In this document: positions 35,103-58,185 of the stretch, in pieces
How positions within the stretch are numbered: the first letter of the stretch is position 1
How the letters are laid out: every line of letters starts with the position of its first letter
Source: an uncultured Candidatus Saccharibacteria bacterium
Lineage (GTDB): Bacteria; Patescibacteriota; Minisyncoccia; Phycocordibacterales; Zambryskibacteraceae
Length of the DNA: 64,000 nucleotides
Direction of reading: 5' to 3'
NCBI GenBank assembly: GCA_964509605.1
Contig: CAZDXF010000002.1
Coordinates: forward strand, 25,514-89,513
The notes under the pieces: generated by a model
Database searches by the model: none
Told to the model about the DNA's origin: nothing
The model's input: only the letters and a program-made list of their open reading frames with translations
Program-made: the position numbers and the translations under genes

Positions 35103-37040
35103 ATGGCAAATCCCAACACTAAGAAAAAGAAACAGCATAAGGTTGTTATAAAAAGGGGCTTTAAACAGGGGTCTGGCCCTCAAAATCCAATGTGGAAAAA
35201 TTTTCTTTCCACCCTCCTTGTTTTTCTCATCATAATGACACTTTACTCCGCTGTTTCCGAGAGGAGGGAAAAAACCGAGCAAATTCCGATTTCACAACTA
35301 GCTTCGGCTGTAATAGAAGAGAAGGTTTCAAAGATAATTGTAAGCGGAGATAAACTGGAAGTTGAATATTCAGACGGTTCAAAAGTTGATTCAAAAAAAG
35401 AAGCCGAATCTTCTCTTTCTGAAACTCTGTCAATTTACGGAGTTTCTCCCGAAGTTTTAGCGAAAGTTCAGATTGAAATAAAGTCACAGGGAGGTCTTGG
35501 TTTCTGGATCTTGAATTTATTACCGATTATCATACCGATTTTATTTATAATATTTTTTATTTGGTTTTTGTCCCGCCAAGTCAAAGGGGCCGGCATGCAG
35601 GCATTTACTTTTGGCCAATCAAAGGCGCGAATTATTCCAGCTGGAGACACAAAACAAAAAGTCACATTTAAAGATGTCGCTGGTGTGAAAGAAGCAAAGC
35701 AAGAGCTTTATGAAATTGTAGATTTTCTAAAAAGCCCGAAGAAATTTTTAGATATTGGCGCTCAAATTCCAAAAGGAGTTTTACTTATGGGTGCTCCTGG
35801 AACAGGTAAGACGCTTTTGGCTAGAGCTGTGGCGGGTGAGGCAGGAGTGGCATTCTTTTCAATTTCTGGTTCAGAATTTGTAGAGATGTTTGTGGGCGTC
35901 GGAGCTTCTAGGGTTAGAGACTTATTTCAGCTTGCAAAAAAGGCATCTCCGGCAATTATTTTTGTTGATGAAATTGACGCTGTTGGAAGGGTGAGAGGAG
36001 TTGGCGCCGGTGGTGGAAATGATGAAAGGGAGCAAACTCTAAACCAAATTTTGGTGGAGATGGATGGTTTTGAACCAAATGAAAAGGTGATTGTAATGGC
36101 CGCGACCAATAGACCCGATGTGTTAGATCCAGCACTTCTTCGTCCGGGCAGATTTGATAGGAGAGTTGTGATTGATTTGCCAGATAGGGGTGATAGGGAA
36201 GAGATTCTTTTAATACACGCACGACAGAAACCTTTAGCAGAAGATGTGAATTTGAAGGTTATTGCAGAGCGTACCCCAGGTTTTTCTGGTGCGGATTTGT
36301 CCTCCCTTATGAATGAAGGAGCTATTCTTGCCGCTAGGGAAGATCGCACCAAAGTTTCGCAGTTTGATCTTATTCGTTCTATAGAAAAAGTAATGCTAGG
36401 TCCTGAGAGGAAAAGCCATCTTCTATCAGTAAAAGAAAAAGAAATTACTGCGTACCACGAAGCGGGACACGCCTTAGTTGGTTCAGTTCTTGAATATTCT
36501 GATCCTGTTCATAAAATTTCTATAATTTCTCGTGGTCGTGCCGCTGGATACACATTGAATCTTCCTCTTGAAGATAGAAGATTACAATCTAAAAAAGAAT
36601 TTTTGGACGATATAGCGATGTCACTTGGAGGTTATGTCGCAGAAAGGTTGGTGTTTGGTGATATTACTACAGGCCCGTCTAATGATCTGCAAGTTTCTAC
36701 TGCCTTAGCACGAGATATGGTGACCAAATATGGAATGTCTGACAAAATGGGCCCGATTGCTTTGGAAAGTTCTTCCGGCAAAACTCTTTTTGGCAGGGGA
36801 GTTGATGACAGAGATTATTCAGAAAAAGTTGGAGCCGAAATTGATGCTGAAGTTTCAAAGATAATGAAAGAAGCGTTGGCAAAAGCTCAAGATATTCTTG
36901 AAAAACATCGCAAAGTTTTGGATGTGATCTCTTTGAGACTTATAGAAGTTGAGACAATAGAAAGGGATGAATTTGAAGATATATTGGTTGCAAACGGCAT
37001 CACCCCAAAAAAGAAAAAAGACATAGAGCACCAGGTTTAG
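35103..37040 (+). CDS. ftsH: ATP-dependent zinc metalloprotease FtsH
   Basis: AAA+ Walker [18 protein letters not shown] zinc site. Extended -10 tgTATAAT lies upstream at ~35084-35091. Confidence 0.9.
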
Positions 37041-37043
37041 TTT

Positions 37044-37084
37044 GTCCGCCCTCCAGGATTCGAACCTGGGACCCCGGAGGTATA
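37044..37084 (-). pseudogene. Partial duplicate (3' half) of the adjacent tRNA-Ile gene
   Basis: 41 bp identical to 37100-37140 (acceptor 3' strand, T-arm, anticodon stem), then diverges. Confidence 0.5.
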
Positions 37085-37099
37085 TGAACGATTACATAG

Positions 37100-37173
37100 T
37101 CCGCCCTCCAGGATTCGAACCTGGGACCCCGGAGGTATAAGCTCCGTGCTCTAACCAACTGAGCTAAGGGCGG
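37100..37173 (-). tRNA. tRNA-Ile (anticodon UAU)
   Basis: Cloverleaf: acceptor CCGCCCU/AGGGCGG, D-stem GCUC/GAGC, anticodon stem CGGAG/CUCCG with loop CUUAUAC, T-stem CCAGG/CCUGG, T-loop UUCGAAU. CCA not encoded. Confidence 0.65.
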
Positions 37174-37249: not shown

Positions 37250-37335
37250 TATAAGCTCCATGCTCTATCAACTGCCCGTCCCGTATGAAATAGACTGCTT
37301 TTCAGTCGTTATTTCATACGGGAAGCTAAGGGCGG
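37250..37335 (-). pseudogene. Degenerate tRNA 5'-half copy interrupted by a 47-nt perfect nested hairpin
   Basis: ccgcccttagct [cccgtatgaaata gactgcttttcagtc gttatttcatacggg] cagttgatagagcatggagcttataa resembles the tRNA-Ile 5' half. No T-arm or acceptor 3' strand follows. Confidence 0.4.
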
Positions 37336-37511
37336 ATGTAGGAGAATACTATAGCAAAAAATCTTTCCAGACAATTATTCAATGATGAATAAATTTTGTT
37401 AAAATTTTAACTTTCTAAGTTTGAATTTGATTATAGACAGATATTAGCTTTTAAACAACCACATTTATTTATGGTGATATTATAAAAAGATATAAAATTT
37501 AATTTATTCTA

Positions 37512-39668
37512 ATGAAAAACAAAGAGTTGGTTGATTATATTAAATTACAAAAGACAAAGGGCACTCCATTGAATGTTATAAAATCAAATCTTCGTCTCGG
37601 AGGGGGGTGGAGCGATGGTGATATTGATGAAGCTCTTATGGAAATAAGTCCTGAAGCTGTAGAGGTCCACGGAGATTCACCAAAAATCGCAGAAAGCACG
37701 ACGCAGGAGACTTCGGATCTGTCTTTAGAAAACAACTCTATTCCACAAGGTTATCCGTCTCAGAGTTCAGGAGAGTCCGTTGATGCGCTGTCTACTTGGG
37801 CATCAGAAGAAAATAAAAATAAATTAAACAAAAGAGCCCTTGTGATAGGAAGCGTCTTTGCTTTAGGGGGAATTGTTTTGATTGTTATTTTTTATTTATT
37901 TTTTCCAAAGGTTGGGTTTTTTGTAAAGGGCAAATATACAGAAAGCACTTTTCTTACCAGCATAATTTCCAAGTCCTCTGAGATAAAATCCTCATCAAGT
38001 CGTATAAAATTGTCACTTTCAGTTGTTCCGCGTGATGCGGACGCTCAGCCAATTGTTGTTATAGAACCTGATCAAAAAAACAGAAAGGACTACCAAAATG
38101 ATTACACCAGATCTAAAGACGCCAGTTCATTGCTTAGTCAGCTTAAATATAGAAATTCTTATCCACCCAGTCTCAAAGCCTTAACTCAAAGCTCTGATTA
38201 TTTTTATCAAAAACCATCCCTAACTGATCCCGTTTCTGGCAGGGAGTACGAGTATCGCCTTACTGATAATGGCAGAAATTTTACTCTTTCTATCACCTTT
38301 GATACCAAAGACGCCATATCTACTATACGTCGTTCGTTGAGCCATACAGATGGTGGTAGTAGCACAGTAATAAATGGCCAGACTGTAACTTTCACCAAAG
38401 ATAGCAATCCTTTCTTTTTCTTTTCTCCGGAGCCACCCAAACCATTTTTAATGGAGTTTGCAGATATGTCAGCTTTTCTGCCATCAGAGCTTTCTGCTGA
38501 TGTCTCTTTTGGGGCTACCACTGATTGGAGTAATGCAGATTGGGAGTTTAATTTTGATGCAAATGGTGATTTTGGAGATTTGGTTTATAAAATAAATGTA
38601 GATGCTCTCAGAAAAGATGGTGACTATTATTTTAGAATTAATAATATGCCGAGCTTGTTTCTTGGGTCCTTGTCTTCGGTAAAAAACCGTTGGATTAAGA
38701 TTGCATCACAAGAAGAAAATAACCCAACAGGTTATGGAAATAGACTTTTATATTTTGCAAATTTAATTTCTGATTATGAGGAGACGACACAGAAAAATCA
38801 GGAAGAATCTATTCGTTTATTGCAAAAAATTTCAGAATTTGCTGATAAAGAAAAACTGTTTAAATTTAGAAAATCTCCGTCCCCGGATAAAATTGAAGGA
38901 AGGAGTTTAAAGCGATATGAACTAGAGTTTAGAAAGGAAGCCATCGTTCCATTTTATGAAAGACTTCTTGATGAAATAAATAGTGGCAACTACAGTAGTT
39001 ATGGTTTTATGTTAAACGACGAAGGTCTTTTGGAATATTTTAAGAGTAAAGATTTTGATGTGATGTTTGATTACTACAACAAAAACACTTTTCTCTCTTT
39101 GTGGGTTGATAAAAATGGCTTCCCCGTGATTTTGGAATACAAAATTCGTGTAGTTCCTCCTGACACAGCGTCTCAGCTTAAGGACAGGCAGTTAGAACTT
39201 GTTTTTAATCTGGCCCTTAACGATATTAACAAACAGGTTAATATTAAGAGCCCGGCGGATTTTGTTAATTTGGAAGAAATAATAGAAGATTCCCCTCTAT
39301 TTTCTGCTAGACAAACTGGAGCGAATGCAGCTATAAAGTCGAATTTAGCTTCCATTAGAGCGGAAGCAGAGATTTATTATGATTACAGTGGTAATTTTTC
39401 TTACGGACCGGCTAATCGGGGTGGGAATTGTGATACATCAGGTACTATTTTTGTTAGTGCCGATGTTAAAAAAAGTCTAAGCGCTATTAGGTCCGTTCTT
39501 TCTTCTAATAATGTTGATAAGCCTATTACCTGCTATAACACGGCAGTTAGTTGGGCTGTATCGTCCCCATTAATTTTATCGGAAGTCGAGGGGGATTATT
39601 GGTGTGTTGATTCTACGGGTTTTTCTGGTCCAATAAGAAATTCTATAGTAAGTGCTTCTTGCATATAA
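37512..39668 (+). CDS. Large membrane-anchored extracellular protein with C-terminal type IV pilin-like globular domain
   Basis: TM helix at ~aa 110-132. The C-terminal ~130 aa align with the pilins of this locus (KSNLASIRAEAEIYYD..., WAVSSPL...YWCVDSTG, terminal Cys pair), but there is no prepilin leader or N-terminal pilin helix. Confidence 0.6.
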   Translation: MKNKELVDYIKLQKTKGTPLNVIKSNLRLGGGWSDGDIDEALMEISPEAVEVHGDSPKIAESTTQETSDLSLENNSIPQGYPSQSSGESVDALSTWASEENKNKLNKRALVIGSVFALGGIVLIVIFYLFFPKVGFFVKGKYTESTFLTSIISKSSEIKSSSSRIKLSLSVVPRDADAQPIVVIEPDQKNRKDYQNDYTRSKDASSLLSQLKYRNSYPPSLKALTQSSDYFYQKPSLTDPVSGREYEYRLTDNGRNFTLSITFDTKDAISTIRRSLSHTDGGSSTVINGQTVTFTKDSNPFFFFSPEPPKPFLMEFADMSAFLPSELSADVSFGATTDWSNADWEFNFDANGDFGDLVYKINVDALRKDGDYYFRINNMPSLFLGSLSSVKNRWIKIASQEENNPTGYGNRLLYFANLISDYEETTQKNQEESIRLLQKISEFADKEKLFKFRKSPSPDKIEGRSLKRYELEFRKEAIVPFYERLLDEINSGNYSSYGFMLNDEGLLEYFKSKDFDVMFDYYNKNTFLSLWVDKNGFPVILEYKIRVVPPDTASQLKDRQLELVFNLALNDINKQVNIKSPADFVNLEEIIEDSPLFSARQTGANAAIKSNLASIRAEAEIYYDYSGNFSYGPANRGGNCDTSGTIFVSADVKKSLSAIRSVLSSNNVDKPITCYNTAVSWAVSSPLILSEVEGDYWCVDSTGFSGPIRNSIVSASCI

Positions 39669-41872: not shown

Positions 41873-42385
41873 CTATTTAACTATCACCAAACCTGTTCTA
41901 GAAGAATTCATGTGGTTGTGGAAATACCATTTTCCTATTTCTGTGAATGTAAAAGTGTATGTTCCGCCTCTGCCTACAGAAATTCTCTGATCAAATGCTG
42001 GATATGCGCTGTGAGAGGGGTGAGGATTTGAAGCAACCCACATTTGTTGATTACTTTCGTTTATAAATTGCACTGAGCCACCCTTGCTTATGGTTATTGT
42101 TGTCGGAGAAAATCCTTCATTTGTATATCTTACTGTTGCTGGAGGAAGGGCATGGGATGAAACTTGAGGTTGCACAACAGTTGGACTTGGCGCTTGTGGT
42201 TTTGGTGCAGAATTCTGACCATTTCCTGCAGAAGTTTCTTCAGAAACTGTTTCCTGCAAATCTTCTGCTGTGGGAGCAACAGTTTCTTTTTTACCAGCCA
42301 TTAAAGAAGCAAAAAGTACAATTATTAATATTGTGAGAACCGCTATCAATATATTTTTTTTATTCATATTTTTAATATTTTGCAT
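41873..42385 (-). CDS. Hypothetical secreted protein (cupredoxin-like C-terminal beta domain?)
   Basis: Signal/TM, Pro/Gln-rich linker, C-terminal beta-rich domain. Confidence 0.4.
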   Translation of the reverse strand: MQNIKNMNKKNILIAVLTILIIVLFASLMAGKKETVAPTAEDLQETVSEETSAGNGQNSAPKPQAPSPTVVQPQVSSHALPPATVRYTNEGFSPTTITISKGGSVQFINESNQQMWVASNPHPSHSAYPAFDQRISVGRGGTYTFTFTEIGKWYFHNHMNSSRTGLVIVK

Positions 42386-42407
42386 ACATTTAAATTATAC
42401 ACCTAAA

Positions 42408-42821
42408 TTATTTTCCGACTTGGGTTATGAAAAATGCTACAGTCGTTGAGAACCCGGTGATAAAAAATCCCCAAGCCATATCAGCAAGAGAGAGTTTCCA
42501 GCTCCATCCCGAAAGAGTAGCGAGGTTTGTCATATCGTATATTCCATAGACTATGAGTCCAAAAACTCCTCCTATTAAAAATGCTTTTATCAAGGTGGCG
42601 TCTGAACTAACTTTGGGTAGGGCAAAAAGGACCACTCCGAGAGCTAAGAAAATATAAGCGAACACTACGCCAGACCAATCTGGAGAAAGTTTCTCTCCGA
42701 CTCTACGCGCCAAGGCCCCTAGGTTGGTGTTATAAAAATCAGCCATCACTATGGATAGCCAAATATAGTCAAGAATTACAAAAGAAACGAGCGCACCAAT
42801 AAAAGGTTGTATAAAGCTCAT
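42408..42821 (-). CDS. Small multi-TM membrane protein (DUF2177-like)
   Basis: 4 TM segments. Confidence 0.45.
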   Translation of the reverse strand: MSFIQPFIGALVSFVILDYIWLSIVMADFYNTNLGALARRVGEKLSPDWSGVVFAYIFLALGVVLFALPKVSSDATLIKAFLIGGVFGLIVYGIYDMTNLATLSGWSWKLSLADMAWGFFITGFSTTVAFFITQVGK

Positions 42822-42842
42822 CCTAAAATTTTAGCACAATTT

Positions 42843-43298
42843 TTATTTTAGATCGGCTATTATTATTTTTTTCATTTGCATCATTTTTGCAAAAGCTTTT
42901 GGGTCTTGAACCCATTCATCAATCCCTTCTGGTGCCACTTGCCAGCTAAGACCGTATTTGTCTTTAAGCCAACCACAAACACTCTCTTGTCCACCGTTCG
43001 AAGTGAGTTTTTCCCAGTAGTAATCTATTTCCGATTGATCTTTACAGTTAATCAAGAATGAAACAGATTCATTAAATTTAAATTCAGATCCAGCATTTAT
43101 TGCGATAAAGCTCTGTCCTAGAATCTCAAATTCTATAGTCAAAACTTTTTCAGCAAATTCTTTTTGGAAGTCCGCAAGTCCTTCTTTTGGATAATAATTT
43201 ATTGAAATTATTTTTCCTTCTGGAAAAACAGAAAGATAAAAATCAACAGCTTCTTTGGCATTTCTATCAAACCATAAATTTGGAACAATCTTTTTCAT
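42843..43298 (-). CDS. VOC-family PhnB-like protein (3-demethylubiquinone-9 3-methyltransferase domain)
   Basis: N-terminal PNLWFD...EAVDFY motif typical of PhnB-like VOC proteins. Confidence 0.65.
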   Translation of the reverse strand: MKKIVPNLWFDRNAKEAVDFYLSVFPEGKIISINYYPKEGLADFQKEFAEKVLTIEFEILGQSFIAINAGSEFKFNESVSFLINCKDQSEIDYYWEKLTSNGGQESVCGWLKDKYGLSWQVAPEGIDEWVQDPKAFAKMMQMKKIIIADLK

Positions 43299-46122: not shown

Positions 46123-47691
46123 ATGTCCAAACCAAAGTATTTTCTTTACGCTCGCAAGAGCATCGAGGACGATGACCGACAAGTGATGTCCATTGAGGCA
46201 CAGCTTTTTGAGTTGCGAGAATTGGCGCGTAAAGAAAATCTTGAAATTCTTGAGGAATTTCAAGAGTCGAAAAGCGCAAAGACGCCTGGACGCGAGGTAT
46301 TCGGCGAAATGATGTTAAAAGTAGAGAAATTGGATGGTGTCGGCATATTAGCGTGGCATCCCGATCGCCTCGCGCGTAATTCGATTGACGGTGGACGAGT
46401 AATTTACGCCGTGGACACTCGCAAGGTTGTGTCTTTGCGCTTCCCGACATTTTGGTTTGAACCAACCCCGCAAGGGCTCTTTATGTTGCAAGTGGCGTTT
46501 GGGCAGAGCAAATATTATTCTGATAACTTATCCGACAATATTAAGCGAGGTGTCCGCCAAAAATTGAGACGTGGCGAATGGTTGAACTTAGCTCCCTTTG
46601 GCTATCAAAACAACCCGCGTATTAGAAATATTGAACCTCATCCGACAAATGCTCGCGTGGTGAAGTTAGCTTTTGAGGAATACGCCAAAGGTTCGCACAC
46701 TTTTATTTCGCTCGCGCAATTTTTGGCGGACTTAGGTGTGGTAACAAAACACCAAACGCCACTCGCCAAAGTTTCCATCAAACGACTTCTTACTCATCGA
46801 GCATATCTCGGTTTCGTGAAGCATGGACAAGAATGGTTTGATGGAAACTTTGAGCCAATTATTTCTCCCGCATTGTTTGAAGCCGTGCAGAAAGTATTGC
46901 AAACGAAGGAAAGGCCGCGCAAAAGGAAAATCAAGCATGATTTTCCTTTTACCGGACTTTTTCGATGTGGCGAGTGTGGCAGTATGATTTCCGCACAGTG
47001 GGCAACTGGAAAGTCTGGTCGTCGTTATCGGTATTATCGGTGCTCGAAAAAGCGCGGCCATTGTTCGCAAGCTTATTTACAAGAAAGTGAACTTACGAGG
47101 CAAATCTGTGCACGGCTTCAAACAATTTCGCTTTGCGATCGCTATACCGACTGGATGTTAGATAAAGTGAAACTGTGGGAGCACGAGGAAATTGGAGCGT
47201 CGCAAAGCGAGGTTCAAAATCTTTCCGATAGTATCAAAGCGAACGAGGAGCGCATGGAAAAACTACTCTCGGCGTATTTAGATGGTGATGTACCAAAAGA
47301 GGTTTACCTTAAACGAAAAGATGTTCTCATGCGCTCTCTCGCCGCTTTGAAAGAGAAAAAGAAAGATTTTGAACGCGGAAGAAAAAATTGGGTCGAACCC
47401 TTGCGGGAATGGATTTTAGATATGAAACAAGCCGATTTTTTGTCCTCTTCGTCTGATTTGTACCAAATCAAGTCGTTCGTCCAAAAAATCGGAACGAACC
47501 CCTTGGTTCGTGACAAATCCGCCCATTTCGCCCTGCCCATTCCGTCCCAATTCGTCGCGGAGCGACGGAACATTTTGCCTAGCCCCGCGCCTTTGGCGCG
47601 GGCTTCTTCCCACCTTTCGGATTTGGAAGTTTCTTTCTGCGGAAGGGGAGGGATTCGAACCCTCGGACCGATTTCTCGGTCAACACATTAG
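46123..47691 (+). CDS. Large serine recombinase (resolvase/invertase catalytic domain + recombinase domain + zinc ribbon)
   Basis: N-terminal YARKSIEDDDRQ...SIEAQ catalytic serine motif, DRLARN, C-terminal CGECGS...YYRCSKK zinc ribbon. The ORF tail reads through IR-B' into the tRNA, so the true stop is uncertain. Confidence 0.8.
   Translation: MSKPKYFLYARKSIEDDDRQVMSIEAQLFELRELARKENLEILEEFQESKSAKTPGREVFGEMMLKVEKLDGVGILAWHPDRLARNSIDGGRVIYAVDTRKVVSLRFPTFWFEPTPQGLFMLQVAFGQSKYYSDNLSDNIKRGVRQKLRRGEWLNLAPFGYQNNPRIRNIEPHPTNARVVKLAFEEYAKGSHTFISLAQFLADLGVVTKHQTPLAKVSIKRLLTHRAYLGFVKHGQEWFDGNFEPIISPALFEAVQKVLQTKERPRKRKIKHDFPFTGLFRCGECGSMISAQWATGKSGRRYRYYRCSKKRGHCSQAYLQESELTRQICARLQTISLCDRYTDWMLDKVKLWEHEEIGASQSEVQNLSDSIKANEERMEKLLSAYLDGDVPKEVYLKRKDVLMRSLAALKEKKKDFERGRKNWVEPLREWILDMKQADFLSSSSDLYQIKSFVQKIGTNPLVRDKSAHFALPIPSQFVAERRNILPSPAPLARASSHLSDLEVSFCGRGGIRTLGPISRSTH
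47512..47642. repeat. 131-bp inverted repeat, right copy (IR-B'); abuts and overlaps the 3' end of tRNA-Ser
   Basis: Reverse complement of 45966-46096. The core CTTTCTGCGG at 47633-47642 includes the tRNA's last bases. Confidence 0.85.
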
Positions 47692-47726
47692 CAGTGTGCT
47701 GCATTCGACCGCTCTGCCACCCTTCC
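47640..47726 (-). tRNA. tRNA-Ser (anticodon GCU), class II with long variable arm
   Basis: Acceptor GGAAGGG/CCCUUCC, D-stem GCA/UGC, anticodon stem GCACA/UGUGU with loop CUGCUAA, variable arm GACCGAGAAAUCGGUC, T-stem GAGGG/CCCUC, T-loop UUCGAAU. Confidence 0.8.
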
Positions 47727-53108: not shown

Positions 53109-53142
53109 TTTTTTTTAAATTTTGTGTGGTAGAATTTTCTAT

Positions 53143-53535
53143 ATGAGCAAAAAGAAAGACTTCAGTATTCTTTTGGTGGATGACGACAAATTTTTGTTGG
53201 ATATGTACGCTACAAAATTTAAAAGTGAAGGTTTTACGGTTCACACTTCTTCAGGGGCGCAAGACGCCTTGAATAAGCTGAGGGGAGGAGAAGTGCCCGA
53301 TATTTTGGTTTTTGATATCATAATGCCTCAAATGGATGGCTTAGAACTTTTGGAAAATGTTCGAAAGGAAGGCCTAGCAAAAACTTCTGTTGTGGTGATG
53401 CTTACAAATGAGACAGATCCAGCTAAAATTGAAAAAGCTCAATCTTTGGGAATAGATGGTTATATTGTGAAAGCCACTCTTATTCCTTCCGAGGTTGTTG
53501 ATGAGGTTATAAAAATTGTAGAAAATAAAAAATAA
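53143..53535 (+). CDS. CheY-like single-domain response regulator (PilH-like)
   Basis: Receiver domain with DD...D...K residues. Sits between pilB and pilT. Confidence 0.75.
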   Translation: MSKKKDFSILLVDDDKFLLDMYATKFKSEGFTVHTSSGAQDALNKLRGGEVPDILVFDIIMPQMDGLELLENVRKEGLAKTSVVVMLTNETDPAKIEKAQSLGIDGYIVKATLIPSEVVDEVIKIVENKK

Positions 53536-55928: not shown

Positions 55929-56390
55929 ATGAAAAAAGATAGAGGTTTTACACTTATAGAGCTTTTGGTGGTCATAGCGATCATCGGGATTCTATCTTCA
56001 GTTGTCTTGGCGAGTTTGAATGTAGCCAGAGGAAAGGGTGCTGACGCTGCTACAAAATCAAACTTAAGTAATGCTAGAGCACAGGCTGAGGTTTATTACG
56101 ATGGAAATAGCCAAGCTTATACCAACCTTTGCACTGCAACAGGTGCTAACCCTGGTATTGGAACAATGCTGACCGCAGCACAATCTAGTTCTGGGGCGGC
56201 GAGCATAGTAACTGCAAACGGAACTGCAGGAACTGCTACTACTGTTATATGTCATGCTGATGCAAACGGTTGGGCTGTTTCAGCTCCACTTAGATCAGAG
56301 ACGGGGTATTGGTGTGTTGATAGTGCTGGTACTTCTGCAAAGAAAACAAATGTTTTGGCGGCTAACTCAATGGCTTGTCCAGCAACATAA
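55929..56390 (+). CDS. pilA: Type IVa major pilin
   Basis: Leader MKKDRG|FTLIELLVVIAIIGIL and C-terminal Cys pair. A strong terminator follows. Confidence 0.85.
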   Translation: MKKDRGFTLIELLVVIAIIGILSSVVLASLNVARGKGADAATKSNLSNARAQAEVYYDGNSQAYTNLCTATGANPGIGTMLTAAQSSSGAASIVTANGTAGTATTVICHADANGWAVSAPLRSETGYWCVDSAGTSAKKTNVLAANSMACPAT

Positions 56391-56412
56391 TCTGCTTTTA
56401 GTTTCTTTTTTC

Positions 56413-56442
56413 AAAAACCCCGGTTTACCGGGGTTTTTGTTT
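56413..56442 (+). terminator. Rho-independent terminator after pilA
   Basis: aaaaccccgg-ttta-ccggggttttt. Confidence 0.6.
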
Positions 56443-56490
56443 GGGGATAAAATGCTGTGTTATAAACGAAATAATCTGTATAATTGATTT

Positions 56491-56958
56491 ATGAATAGAC
56501 AAAAAGGTTTCACTCTCATAGAACTTCTAGTAGTAATTGCCATCATTGGAATTCTATCTTCAGTTGTTTTGGCGAGTTTGAATACTGCTAGAGGGAGAAG
56601 TGCGAATGCTGCTATAAAATCAAATTTAGCAAATGTAAGAGCCCAAGCAGAGCTCTTTTACGATACGACTGGAAACAGTACATATGGCGCTTTTGGTACG
56701 GCTACTGCAAATTGTCTGACAACATCAGCAAGCCTGTTTGCTGATACTAAAATTAGGTCATTTATAACTTCTGCTCAAAGTGCCGGAGGGGGCACAGCTC
56801 TTTGCGCTTCTCAACCACTTTCGAATTCAACTTCTTTTGTAATTTCCGTTCAACTCAAACAAACAGAGGGCACATTTAACTATTGGTGTGTGGATTCTTC
56901 CGGAAGTTCTAAAGGACACGCTTCTGCTATTAGCGGAAGCCTAACAGCTTGCCCATAA
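56491..56958 (+). CDS. Type IVa pilin (second copy)
   Basis: Leader MNRQKG|FTLIELLVVIAIIGIL. Confidence 0.8.
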   Translation: MNRQKGFTLIELLVVIAIIGILSSVVLASLNTARGRSANAAIKSNLANVRAQAELFYDTTGNSTYGAFGTATANCLTTSASLFADTKIRSFITSAQSAGGGTALCASQPLSNSTSFVISVQLKQTEGTFNYWCVDSSGSSKGHASAISGSLTACP

Positions 56959-56968
56959 AAATAATTTA

Positions 56969-57144
56969 ATGAATAGACAAAAAGGTTTTACCCGCACACC
57001 TGTTTTAAGTAAATTTTCCAGAAATTTGTTCGGATTATTTTTTGCAAACCAAACTCAAAATGAGGGAGGCAAAGAATTAGATAAAACAGGTGTTAGCTCT
57101 GCCAAAGCAGAGCGCGGGTTTACTCTTATAGAACTTCTCGTGGT
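56969..57144 (+). repeat. 176-bp perfect direct repeat (second copy 57589-57764) spanning the 5' ends of two adjacent pilin genes
   Basis: Identical from the ATG through gaacttctcgtggt. Identity stops exactly there. Confidence 0.9.
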
Positions 57145-57544
57145 AATAGCGATCATTGGAATTTTAGCTTCGGTTATTACGGTAAATCTTACTAGTACAA
57201 AAAATAAATCTTCAAATACTGGGATAAAGACAAATTTAGCGACGGTTCGTTCTCAAGCAGAAGTTTATTACAATCAAAACAGCTATGTGTACGGATCTTA
57301 TTCAGGAGCGTGCCCCACAGTTTCAGGAACCGGACATGTCTTTTTGGATCCTGTTGTTGTTTCTGCAATGAATGCAGCAAAATCTGCCAGCGGGGGTACA
57401 GCTCAGTGCTGGGCAAATGGCAATCAGTGGTCGGCTTCCGTCCAACTCCGAGTTCCTGAGGGAAGTGCCAATCATTGGTGTGTGGATTCAACCGCAGCGG
57501 GCAGAGGTACAGCCACAGCACCAAGCAGTTCACTTTGTCCATAA
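56969..57544 (+). CDS. Pilin with unusually long (49-aa) leader
   Basis: MNRQKGFTRTPV...KTGVSSAKAERG|FTLIELLVVIAIIGIL. The 5' 176 bp are identical to the next gene. Confidence 0.7.
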   Translation: MNRQKGFTRTPVLSKFSRNLFGLFFANQTQNEGGKELDKTGVSSAKAERGFTLIELLVVIAIIGILASVITVNLTSTKNKSSNTGIKTNLATVRSQAEVYYNQNSYVYGSYSGACPTVSGTGHVFLDPVVVSAMNAAKSASGGTAQCWANGNQWSASVQLRVPEGSANHWCVDSTAAGRGTATAPSSSLCP

Positions 57545-57588
57545 AGTGTTATAATAGTGTTCTTAACGGTTTAATTAATTTTTTCAAA

Positions 57589-58185
57589 ATGAATAGACAA
57601 AAAGGTTTTACCCGCACACCTGTTTTAAGTAAATTTTCCAGAAATTTGTTCGGATTATTTTTTGCAAACCAAACTCAAAATGAGGGAGGCAAAGAATTAG
57701 ATAAAACAGGTGTTAGCTCTGCCAAAGCAGAGCGCGGGTTTACTCTTATAGAACTTCTCGTGGTCATCGCCATCATTGGTATACTTTCTTCAGTTGTCTT
57801 GGCGAGTTTGAATGCTGCTAGGGCAAAAGGAGCCGATGCGTCCATAAAGTCCAATCTCTCAAATATTAGGCCTCAAGCCGAAATATATTTTGATGACAAT
57901 GGTCATTACGGAGCTGATGTAGATGATAACTGCTCAGCTGGAATTTTTGCAGAGGCAACAATGTCCGCGGCCATTTCTCAAGCTTCCACTGTTAGTGGTA
58001 GTGCTGCAAGTTGTTTTGCAGAGGATGGCATTACTGGATCAGGGGGTACAGCTGCTAACAGCTGGGCCGTTTCAGTTCCTCTCAAGAGCGATCCATTAGT
58101 GCATTGGTGTGTTGATTACACAGGTATTTCTACTTCTACACCAAACGGAGCAGATATTACCAGTGATGTCGCATATTGCCACTAA
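57589..58185 (+). CDS. Pilin with long leader (start moved to MNRQKGF)
   Basis: Same 49-aa leader as 56969, with a distinct mature domain. A terminator follows. Confidence 0.7.
   Translation: MNRQKGFTRTPVLSKFSRNLFGLFFANQTQNEGGKELDKTGVSSAKAERGFTLIELLVVIAIIGILSSVVLASLNAARAKGADASIKSNLSNIRPQAEIYFDDNGHYGADVDDNCSAGIFAEATMSAAISQASTVSGSAASCFAEDGITGSGGTAANSWAVSVPLKSDPLVHWCVDYTGISTSTPNGADITSDVAYCH

Follow-up and report, generated by a model that had tools for sequence, protein, structure and literature searches.

To our knowledge, a pilin head nearly always forms the exterior of a subunit that polymerises; at the locus described here, such a head is found at the end of a large membrane protein. The locus lies in a stretch of 64,000 nucleotides (referred to below as the window) from contig CAZDXF010000002.1 of an uncultured Candidatus Saccharibacteria bacterium. 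An open reading frame (ORF) on the forward strand of the window, at positions 37512-39668, had been singled out in a preliminary description as encoding a protein of 718 amino acids; this ORF is present, and a contig of 179 kb is recorded as encoding an identical protein. Judged from its sequence, the protein ends in a genuine pilin globular domain (helix alpha1-C plus head) and spans the membrane once. It is a bitopic envelope protein that exposes two pilin-head modules, one of them internal, on a conserved scaffold, which makes it a new domain architecture built from known parts, and it belongs to a large, unannotated family that is specific to Parcubacteria, a group of very small and probably symbiotic bacteria.

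The identity of the C-terminal domain was established by comparison with the pilins encoded in the same window, to which the preliminary description had already likened the last ~130 residues. Both pairwise and profile alignments were significant. Residues 594-716 matched the major pilin encoded at 56491 with 36% identity (BLASTP, E = 5e-19) and the one at 55929 with 35% identity (E = 6e-18); all four pilin ORFs of the locus were matched by the head in a sequence search (1e-17 to 2e-12), and a hidden Markov model (HMM) of the head scored them at 1e-30 to 3e-22. When the tail of 125 amino acids was searched alone against 5.8 billion proteins, 36 matches were obtained (best E = 2.4e-16, identity up to 45%), all of which were prepilins of 130-170 amino acids with the PF07963 N_methyl motif, several of them named PilA. 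A joint profile of heads and pilins also reached solved type IVa pilins, for example Thermus PilA4 (6xxd). As modelled by AlphaFold2 (AF2) with a predicted local distance difference test score (pLDDT) of 94.3, the head comprises helix alpha1-C, the helix of the alpha-beta loop, a four-stranded sheet and two Cys pairs, with the leader and alpha1-N absent; helices span positions 2-32 and 57-72 of the head and are accompanied by the four strands. Identity of the head to the pilins of its own genome (31-37%) and to orthologous heads (32-46%) was about equally close.

The cysteines tell the same story as the alignments. C640, C674, C698 and C717 of the head align with the four Cys of the pilins, and there is no Cys upstream of residue 640. 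When pilins and fusion heads are aligned jointly, C698 and C717 prove invariant, in keeping with the terminal disulfide pair that had been described as shared with the pilins, and C674 is conserved in at least 90%. The C-terminal D-region Cys pair by which pilins are recognised is thus found in the head by position, the disulfide bonds themselves being predicted. Exactly four Cys were present in 85 of the 91 family heads.

What the protein lacks is equally informative. The class III signal peptide motif (PF07963 / TIGR02532), which is present in the window pilins, was not found in the 718-residue protein with Pfam or NCBIfam models. The sequence directly before the head is EDSPLFSARQTG, and no hydrophobic alpha1-N precedes the head, the helix of which begins at approximately residue 595, right after the core domain; the sole hydrophobic segment of the protein (residues 107-131) lies 460 residues upstream. 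The earlier statement that there is neither a prepilin leader nor an N-terminal pilin helix was therefore confirmed. With the leader and alpha1-N both missing, neither processing by the prepilin peptidase PilD nor polymerisation is to be expected, and the protein cannot be a pilus subunit. For the same reason it should not be annotated as a pilin.

The architecture of the whole protein is summarized in Table 1 and, together with membership of the family, is very probably correct as described. It was modelled with AF2 from an alignment of 16 sequences (mean pLDDT 76, ordered parts 80-94). A single transmembrane helix had been proposed in the preliminary description, and one hydropathy peak was indeed found (Kyte-Doolittle 2.8 at residues 109-127), as it was in 134 of 137 family members. 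Across the family, the N-terminal flank of this helix holds on average 2.65 Lys and Arg residues and the C-terminal flank 1.16, the N-terminal flank being the richer in 105 members and the poorer in 13; by the positive-inside rule, this predicts an N-in/C-out topology. The four conserved Cys of the pilin-type domain are also consistent with an extracytoplasmic site.

Table 1. Positions of the 718-residue protein, its parts and the pilin genes within the window
Feature	Positions	Strand	Basis or description
Whole gene	37512..39668	+	718-residue bitopic membrane protein, member of an unannotated Paceibacteria family (ORF and homologues)
Residues 1-46, small cytoplasmic three-helix domain	37512..37649	+	AF2 helices 4-15, 20-31 and 35-44, pLDDT 78-87
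Residues 47-106, disordered Ser/Glu/Pro-rich cytoplasmic linker	37650..37829	+	pLDDT ~30, composition
Residues 107-131, single transmembrane helix, N-in/C-out	37830..37904	+	Hydropathy
Residues 139-183, first helix and long beta-strand of the ectodomain core	37926..38060	+	AF2 helix 147-155, strand 160-173
Residues 188-300, internal T2SS-G (pseudopilin)-class head-like module	38073..38411	+	hhalign, AF2, indel pattern
Residues 301-592, conserved core half-barrel, LprG/LolA-like by fold	38412..39287	+	Foldseek
Residues 594-718, type IVa-class pilin head	39291..39665	+	BLASTP, database search, AF2, Cys
Four tandem major-pilin paralogues	55929..58185	+	N_methyl motif; flanked by PilM/O/B/T/C and PilD

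The remainder of the preliminary description required revision. What it called a cytoplasmic head of ~110 amino acids is cytoplasmic, as stated, and in the AF2 model consists of a three-helix domain of ~46 amino acids followed by a disordered linker of ~60 amino acids. The three-helix domain was detected in 93 of the 145 family members with a complete core, which form the basis of all the counts of modules and tails given below, and shows the conserved consensus L..YI......G.....I...L...GW...DI..A; Pfam returned only noise for it at E <= 10, and no family. The linker varies across the family alignment in both length and sequence. The ~450 amino acids between the membrane and the head had been described as Ser/Asn-rich extracellular sequence, a description that did not survive analysis. 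This ectodomain (residues 139-592) is folded (pLDDT mostly 80-94) and conserved in the family; its enrichment in Ser (11.3%) and Asn (6.5%) over background (8.1 and 3.9%, respectively) is mild, no low-complexity tract was found in it by composition analysis, and structural searches gave matches to LprG- and LolA-like folds. An internal module of pseudopilin class had also been missed.

This internal module was recognized by profile comparison. An alignment of 141 sequences of the module was compared by hhalign with tails of the T2SSG type, giving a probability of 96.2% (P = 2.1e-9, 73 columns), whilst 30 column-shuffled control alignments reached at most 1.8%. The reference tails themselves score on the Pfam T2SSG model (8e-8 for P0071 and 1.6e-4 for P0095). 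The Pfam T2SSG model (PF08334) did not match the internal segment of the window protein directly, so that the relationship is one of remote homology. The aligned part corresponds to residues ~193-265, the AF2 model places a long helix at residues 188-212 ahead of a small sheet, and the family motif reads ND..R..D...IL..L....YP..L......DP.T...Y.Y..T..G.NF.L.VTFET. The module is present in 137 of the 145 members and missing as a block in the other eight, among them P0104 and P0110, in which the N-terminal domain, the transmembrane helix and the first strand are retained and an 'EP..PF' motif follows at once. It thus behaves as a discrete insertion in the ectodomain. No similarity between the internal module and the C-terminal type IVa head was detected by hhalign (probability 0.1%), which indicates that the two grafts come from different pilin classes and did not arise by duplication.

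The scaffold that carries both modules was harder to place. Its first part, residues 139-183, has a mean pairwise identity of 39% and is kept in members without the internal module. When the full model was compared with the PDB by Foldseek, the top matches were to Mycobacterium tuberculosis LprG (3mha, 3mh9 and 4zra; E 3e-3 to 1.5e-2, probability 0.94-0.99, template modelling score to target 0.38-0.42), followed by Staphylococcus aureus SAOUHSC_02783, the ependymin type (EPDR1), Csa1A/B, LolA and VioE. All of these are LolA-like half-barrels with lipids or other hydrophobic compounds as ligands, and as a set they are coherent. The match to the LprG-type fold has moderate support, with weak E-values and a root mean square deviation of ~14 A over ~297 columns, and we regard the resemblance of the modelled core to the LolA/LprG lipid-carrier fold as probable. 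A comparison of the full model with viral structures by Foldseek gave nothing meaningful.

Sequence comparison gave no relative for the scaffold. Neither a family nor a solved relative was found when Pfam, NCBIfam and the PDB were searched by sequence or profile with the full protein, with 16 members and with two profiles, one of 81 sequences and one of the core only, and for the core in particular the PDB held no relative by sequence or profile. None of the 16 members gave any Pfam match at E <= 1, those to families of the LolA clan (LolA, LolB, LppX_LprAFG, MucB_RseB, DUF4367 and others) included. A profile of the core module searched against the 5.8 billion proteins gave zero matches, even to known family members, an uninformative result with a probably technical cause. 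The invariant residues of the core are mostly aromatic residues, Gly and Pro, a pattern that suggests a domain for binding or structure and not an enzyme.

When 1.84 billion cluster representatives were searched with a profile, at least 452 representatives of 50%-identity clusters scored at E <= 1e-30, and the window protein shows 34-42% identity to 15 full-length homologues. No Pfam or NCBIfam model was found for the family, and the named public records call its proteins 'hypothetical protein'. A scan of species-representative genomes gave 32 loci, in metagenome-assembled genomes labelled Nomura-, Taylor-, Giovannoni-, Vogel- and Sungbacteria, Minisyncoccia and Paceibacterota and in several others with generic labels; one homologue is annotated as Minisyncoccota. 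The preliminary description had proposed that relatives be searched for the same fusion, and a C-terminal head of the same type IVa class as in the window was found in 87 of the 145 members. A head of T2SSG class occupies the same position in 15 members and another tail in six, whilst the protein ends right after the core in the remaining 37 (26%), which shows that the function of the core is independent of the C-terminal head.

Mean pairwise identity fell from 38% in the core to 34.5% in the internal module and 31% in the head, which is under constraint yet is the most variable folded module. In a neighbour-joining tree of fusion heads and free pilins the heads mostly grouped with one another, pure clades of 54 and 14 being formed, and approximately six state changes were counted over 131 tips. 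This fits a head that was mostly inherited vertically, with occasional exchange or replacement.

Two of the members with other tails stand out. P0071 (988 amino acids) possesses two T2SSG-type heads (Pfam T2SSG 8e-8 for the second) on either side of a thioredoxin-like CPHC domain (Pfam Thioredoxin, 3e-4), which suggests that disulfide chemistry can be attached to the same scaffold. The tail of P0157 (817 amino acids) opens with a weak T2SSG-like segment and closes with bacterial TSP3 (calcium-binding) repeats.

With regard to genomic context, the gene is flanked in the window by tRNA-Ile and FtsH on one side and by a convergent RecG on the other. A complete type IV pilus (T4P) locus starts ~9 kb downstream, at PilM, and comprises PilM, a PilO-like gene, PilB, a receiver-domain gene, PilT, PilC, four pilins, PilD and minor pilins. 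The canonical PilMNO/B/T/C/D set is therefore complete without the 718-residue protein. The four pilins are full length (145-155 amino acids) and their heads are mutually 30-42% identical; no free pilin of T2SSG type was found in the window by the head HMM scan. No conserved gene neighbourhood was evident across 35 family loci. Synteny with FtsH and RecG is confined to the closest relatives, neighbours elsewhere in the family include PrfB, FtsEX and PyrG, and no free prepilin genes were found in the flanks of the family loci.

Several further features of the pilus locus were recorded. The stand-alone response-regulator receiver gene (137 amino acids, 53122-53535) lies between PilB and PilT in the operon, and the four pilins are followed by the PilD gene and at least four minor-pilin-like ORFs, one of which has a PilX_N domain. 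A direct repeat of 208 nucleotides (96%; 56968-57175 and 57588-57795) spans the 5' ends of pilin ORFs 3 and 4. If translation is taken to begin at the first ATG, each of these ORFs opens with 'MNRQKGFT', and the two share an insertion of ~40 amino acids before the real prepilin motif 'ERGFTLIELL'; either these pilins have an unusually long leader (~48 amino acids), or their true starts are at ~57101 and ~57721 and a degenerate remnant of a pilin 5' end is repeated upstream. Just upstream of the locus, a large serine recombinase (Resolvase, Recombinase and Zn_ribbon_recom domains; 522 amino acids) is encoded at 46123-47726, with its 3' end overlapping a tRNA-Ser(GCT) on the opposite strand (47639-47726), and the two may mark the edge of an integrated element.

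Closer to the gene, the tRNA-Ile lies on the minus strand at 37099-37173 and has the anticodon TAT (UAU) (ARAGORN; Rfam 69.7 bits). A tRNA-Ile with a UAU anticodon is uncommon in bacteria. It is surrounded by partial direct copies of itself: a 48-nucleotide copy of the 3' half at 37037-37084 (94%), abutting the FtsH stop codon, and copies of 18-20 nucleotides, at 37250-37267 and 37324-37343, of the 5' part. They have the look of remnants left by duplication or integration at this tRNA. Downstream of RecG, on the minus strand (41873-43298), are three small genes, which encode a cupredoxin-like/StcE beta-sandwich-like protein, a DUF2177 membrane protein and a 3-dmu-9_3-mt (glyoxalase-like) protein; a gene of the 3-dmu-9_3-mt family also adjoins the family gene in locus L003.

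As to function, we tentatively propose, with a confidence that falls somewhat short of even, that the 718-residue protein is a stationary envelope protein, tethered in the membrane with its N-terminus inside and its C-terminus outside, and that its pilin heads are binding modules presented on a scaffold possibly suited to a hydrophobic ligand. Pilin heads would have been grafted onto this scaffold twice, one of T2SS-G class after the first beta-strand and one of type IVa class at the C-terminus. In the AF2 model each head starts at the amphipathic alpha1-C, so that the scaffold takes the place of the alpha1-N stem or filament core, and with the scaffold in that position the outward surface should be the one that a pilus exposes. 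The heads could then serve as recognition modules, docking the protein to the pilus fibre or the pilin pool, or to a surface that is bound by pili. Recruitment of heads at two sites, with at least two classes at the C-terminal site, implies that some property of pilin heads was selected, whether recognition of pili and pilins or of the ligands of pili, and the presence of two or more pilin classes at one C-terminal site argues for selection for a pilin head there. That the heads are pilus-related binding modules is, like the proposal as a whole, a tentative suggestion.

Several observations weigh against this proposal. T4P genes were found within 8 kb of the family gene in only one of the 35 loci, and the gene is thus unlinked to pilus genes; the 37 headless members manage without a C-terminal head altogether; Foldseek gave no significant match of the head model to the PDB, pilins appearing only at E > 1; and the class of the head was compared with that of the major pilins of the same genome in this one genome only.

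If the half-barrel is truly of LolA/LprG type, it would bind a hydrophobic ligand at the cell surface, such as a lipid or the acyl chain of a lipoprotein, and this might serve lipid acquisition or lipid traffic in the envelope. A lipid-handling role is nonetheless doubtful. PMC7242380 describes bacteria of the candidate phyla radiation (CPR) as putative symbionts that are unable to synthesize membrane lipids and whose lipid source is elusive. A pilus-coupled acquisition device could accordingly be envisaged as a long shot, in which the heads would dock to T4P or to its host-surface ligand and the barrel, if LolA/LprG-like, would take up host lipids or lipoprotein anchors, supplying membrane lipids to cells that make none of their own. 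If this were true, lineage-specific swapping of the C-terminal head should track the pilin class of each lineage.

Other explanations account for part of the same evidence. The protein might be a pure adhesin, its C-terminal head binding the host-surface or DNA ligand of the pilus, as the preliminary description had suggested, and the remaining ectodomain acting as a stalk. The head is of the same class as the major pilins of the window, and it is the least conserved folded module (31 versus 38% for the core), swapped or lost between lineages as expected of a variable binder. The supposed stalk, however, is the most conserved part of the protein and has its own fold with lipid-carrier-like matches, and 26% of the members possess the core without the head; an adhesin of this kind is therefore unlikely. 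Equally unlikely is a protein of envelope biogenesis or lipid handling with no tie to the pilus, in which heads were co-opted as stable, disulfide-bonded building blocks, although the core is conserved and sufficient in 37 of the 145 members, the gene has a housekeeping context (FtsH and RecG here; PrfB, FtsEX and PyrG elsewhere) and the head classes are interchangeable. Such an origin would not explain why pilin heads, of at least two classes, occur at two sites and no other common extracellular fold does, which suggests specificity for pilin heads, and the assignment of the core as LolA-like is itself only moderately secure.

An accessory of the pilus machinery was also considered, in which tethered heads would retain, nucleate, cap or regulate the pilus and the cytoplasmic domain would couple it to the cell interior. 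It is in the nature of pilin heads to touch one another and the assembly platform, both grafts are pilin-derived, and the protein is bitopic with a conserved cytoplasmic domain. Against this stand the single locus of 35 with T4P synteny, the position of the gene between tRNA-Ile/FtsH and RecG at some 9 kb from PilM, and a canonical machinery that needs no further component to be complete, and we consider the accessory role quite unlikely. Signalling across the membrane, with extracellular modules that sense a ligand and a three-helix domain that transmits in the manner of an anti-sigma factor, is very improbable. The same bitopic topology would suit a sensor, LolA-like domains occur in RseB-type regulators, and a gene for an extracytoplasmic function (ECF) sigma factor was found within 8 kb in five of the 35 loci (L001, L014, L022, L023 and L025), accompanied in four of the five by a DUF5667 membrane protein. 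The sigma gene is neither consistently adjacent nor co-oriented, however, and the N-terminal domain matches no known signalling or anti-sigma family and was undetected in approximately one-third of the members. The ECF sigma/DUF5667 pair was rejected as a functional link, as its distance and orientation were inconsistent. An artefact, whether an assembly or frameshift fusion of a pilin fragment or a decaying pilin pseudogene, has next to no probability and was rejected on the grounds that the architecture, whose oddity was the one point in favour of this reading, recurs throughout the family: 87 cluster representatives, independent of one another and drawn from many assemblies and lineages, share it. 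Moreover, the frame is intact, the Cys are conserved, the head is modelled with a pLDDT of 94 and the identical protein comes from a separate record, on the 179-kb contig.

Comparison of the tethered protein with known systems shows which of its parts are familiar. The head resembles the type IVa major pilins (PilA) of Parcubacteria in its alpha1-C, alpha-beta loop, predicted four-stranded sheet, 'WCVDS' motif and both Cys pairs. The 718-residue protein differs from these pilins in having no class III signal peptide, no G|F cleavage/methylation motif and no alpha1-N, and in that the head ends an anchored protein of 590 residues whose gene lies outside the pilus operon. The internal module aligns with heads of the T2SSG type, that is, with the head of GspG (T2SSG, PF08334) and with the pilins of that class that abound in CPR bacteria, and 15 members have a T2SSG-class head at the C-terminus; unlike GspG, the module has neither leader nor alpha1-N and is embedded inside another domain. 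LprG/LppX and LolA/LolB are the best structural matches of the core, at the level of fold at most, and LprG is likewise tethered to the cytoplasmic membrane on its outer side. No relationship to LprG or LolA could be detected by sequence, however, and the core of the window protein is ~100 residues larger, with long helical insertions. It also carries the two pilin-head grafts, and where LprG and LppX have a lipoprotein signal peptide and lipobox Cys, the window protein has neither and is anchored by transmembrane helix 107-131, which follows a soluble three-helix domain.

For a pilin head apart from its N-terminal helix, the nearest documented precedent, and the only described case that we found, is the split pilin of Geobacter, in which a helix-only pilin (GSU1496) is paired with a head-only protein of the GSU1497 type (PMC5174107). 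There, the head is a small separate polypeptide, encoded beside the truncated pilin and working with it (PMC5174107), whereas in the window protein it is fused to a large unrelated scaffold and unlinked to pilin genes, in a genome whose pilins are full length. Nothing relevant on fusions of pilins with LolA or LprG in Patescibacteria was found in the searchable literature, nor any account of this architecture. A parallel in concept, by analogy only, may be drawn with the archaeal proteins ArlF and ArlG (FlaF/FlaG), in which a filament-subunit-like domain in an anchored, non-polymerising protein works beside the filament; the two differ in fold family, in machinery and in domain of life, and they are not homologous.

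The family therefore reuses pilin heads as portable, non-polymerising modules, twice on a single scaffold and with different classes at the same site across lineages, and such shuffling of head domains is a route of pilin evolution that is undescribed in the searchable literature. The family merits a profile model of its own, which would prevent the C-terminus from being mis-annotated as a pilin or a 'type II secretion system protein'. Should the heads dock to pili or to the ligands of pili, they would give a concrete handle on what these pilins bind, and the head should be expressible as a soluble domain, as the fusion already sets the domain boundary. More broadly, the analysis flags a large, conserved and unnamed family of surface proteins in Parcubacteria, and if the half-barrel binds lipid, the protein would become a candidate for lipid uptake, the step that is missing in CPR bacteria.

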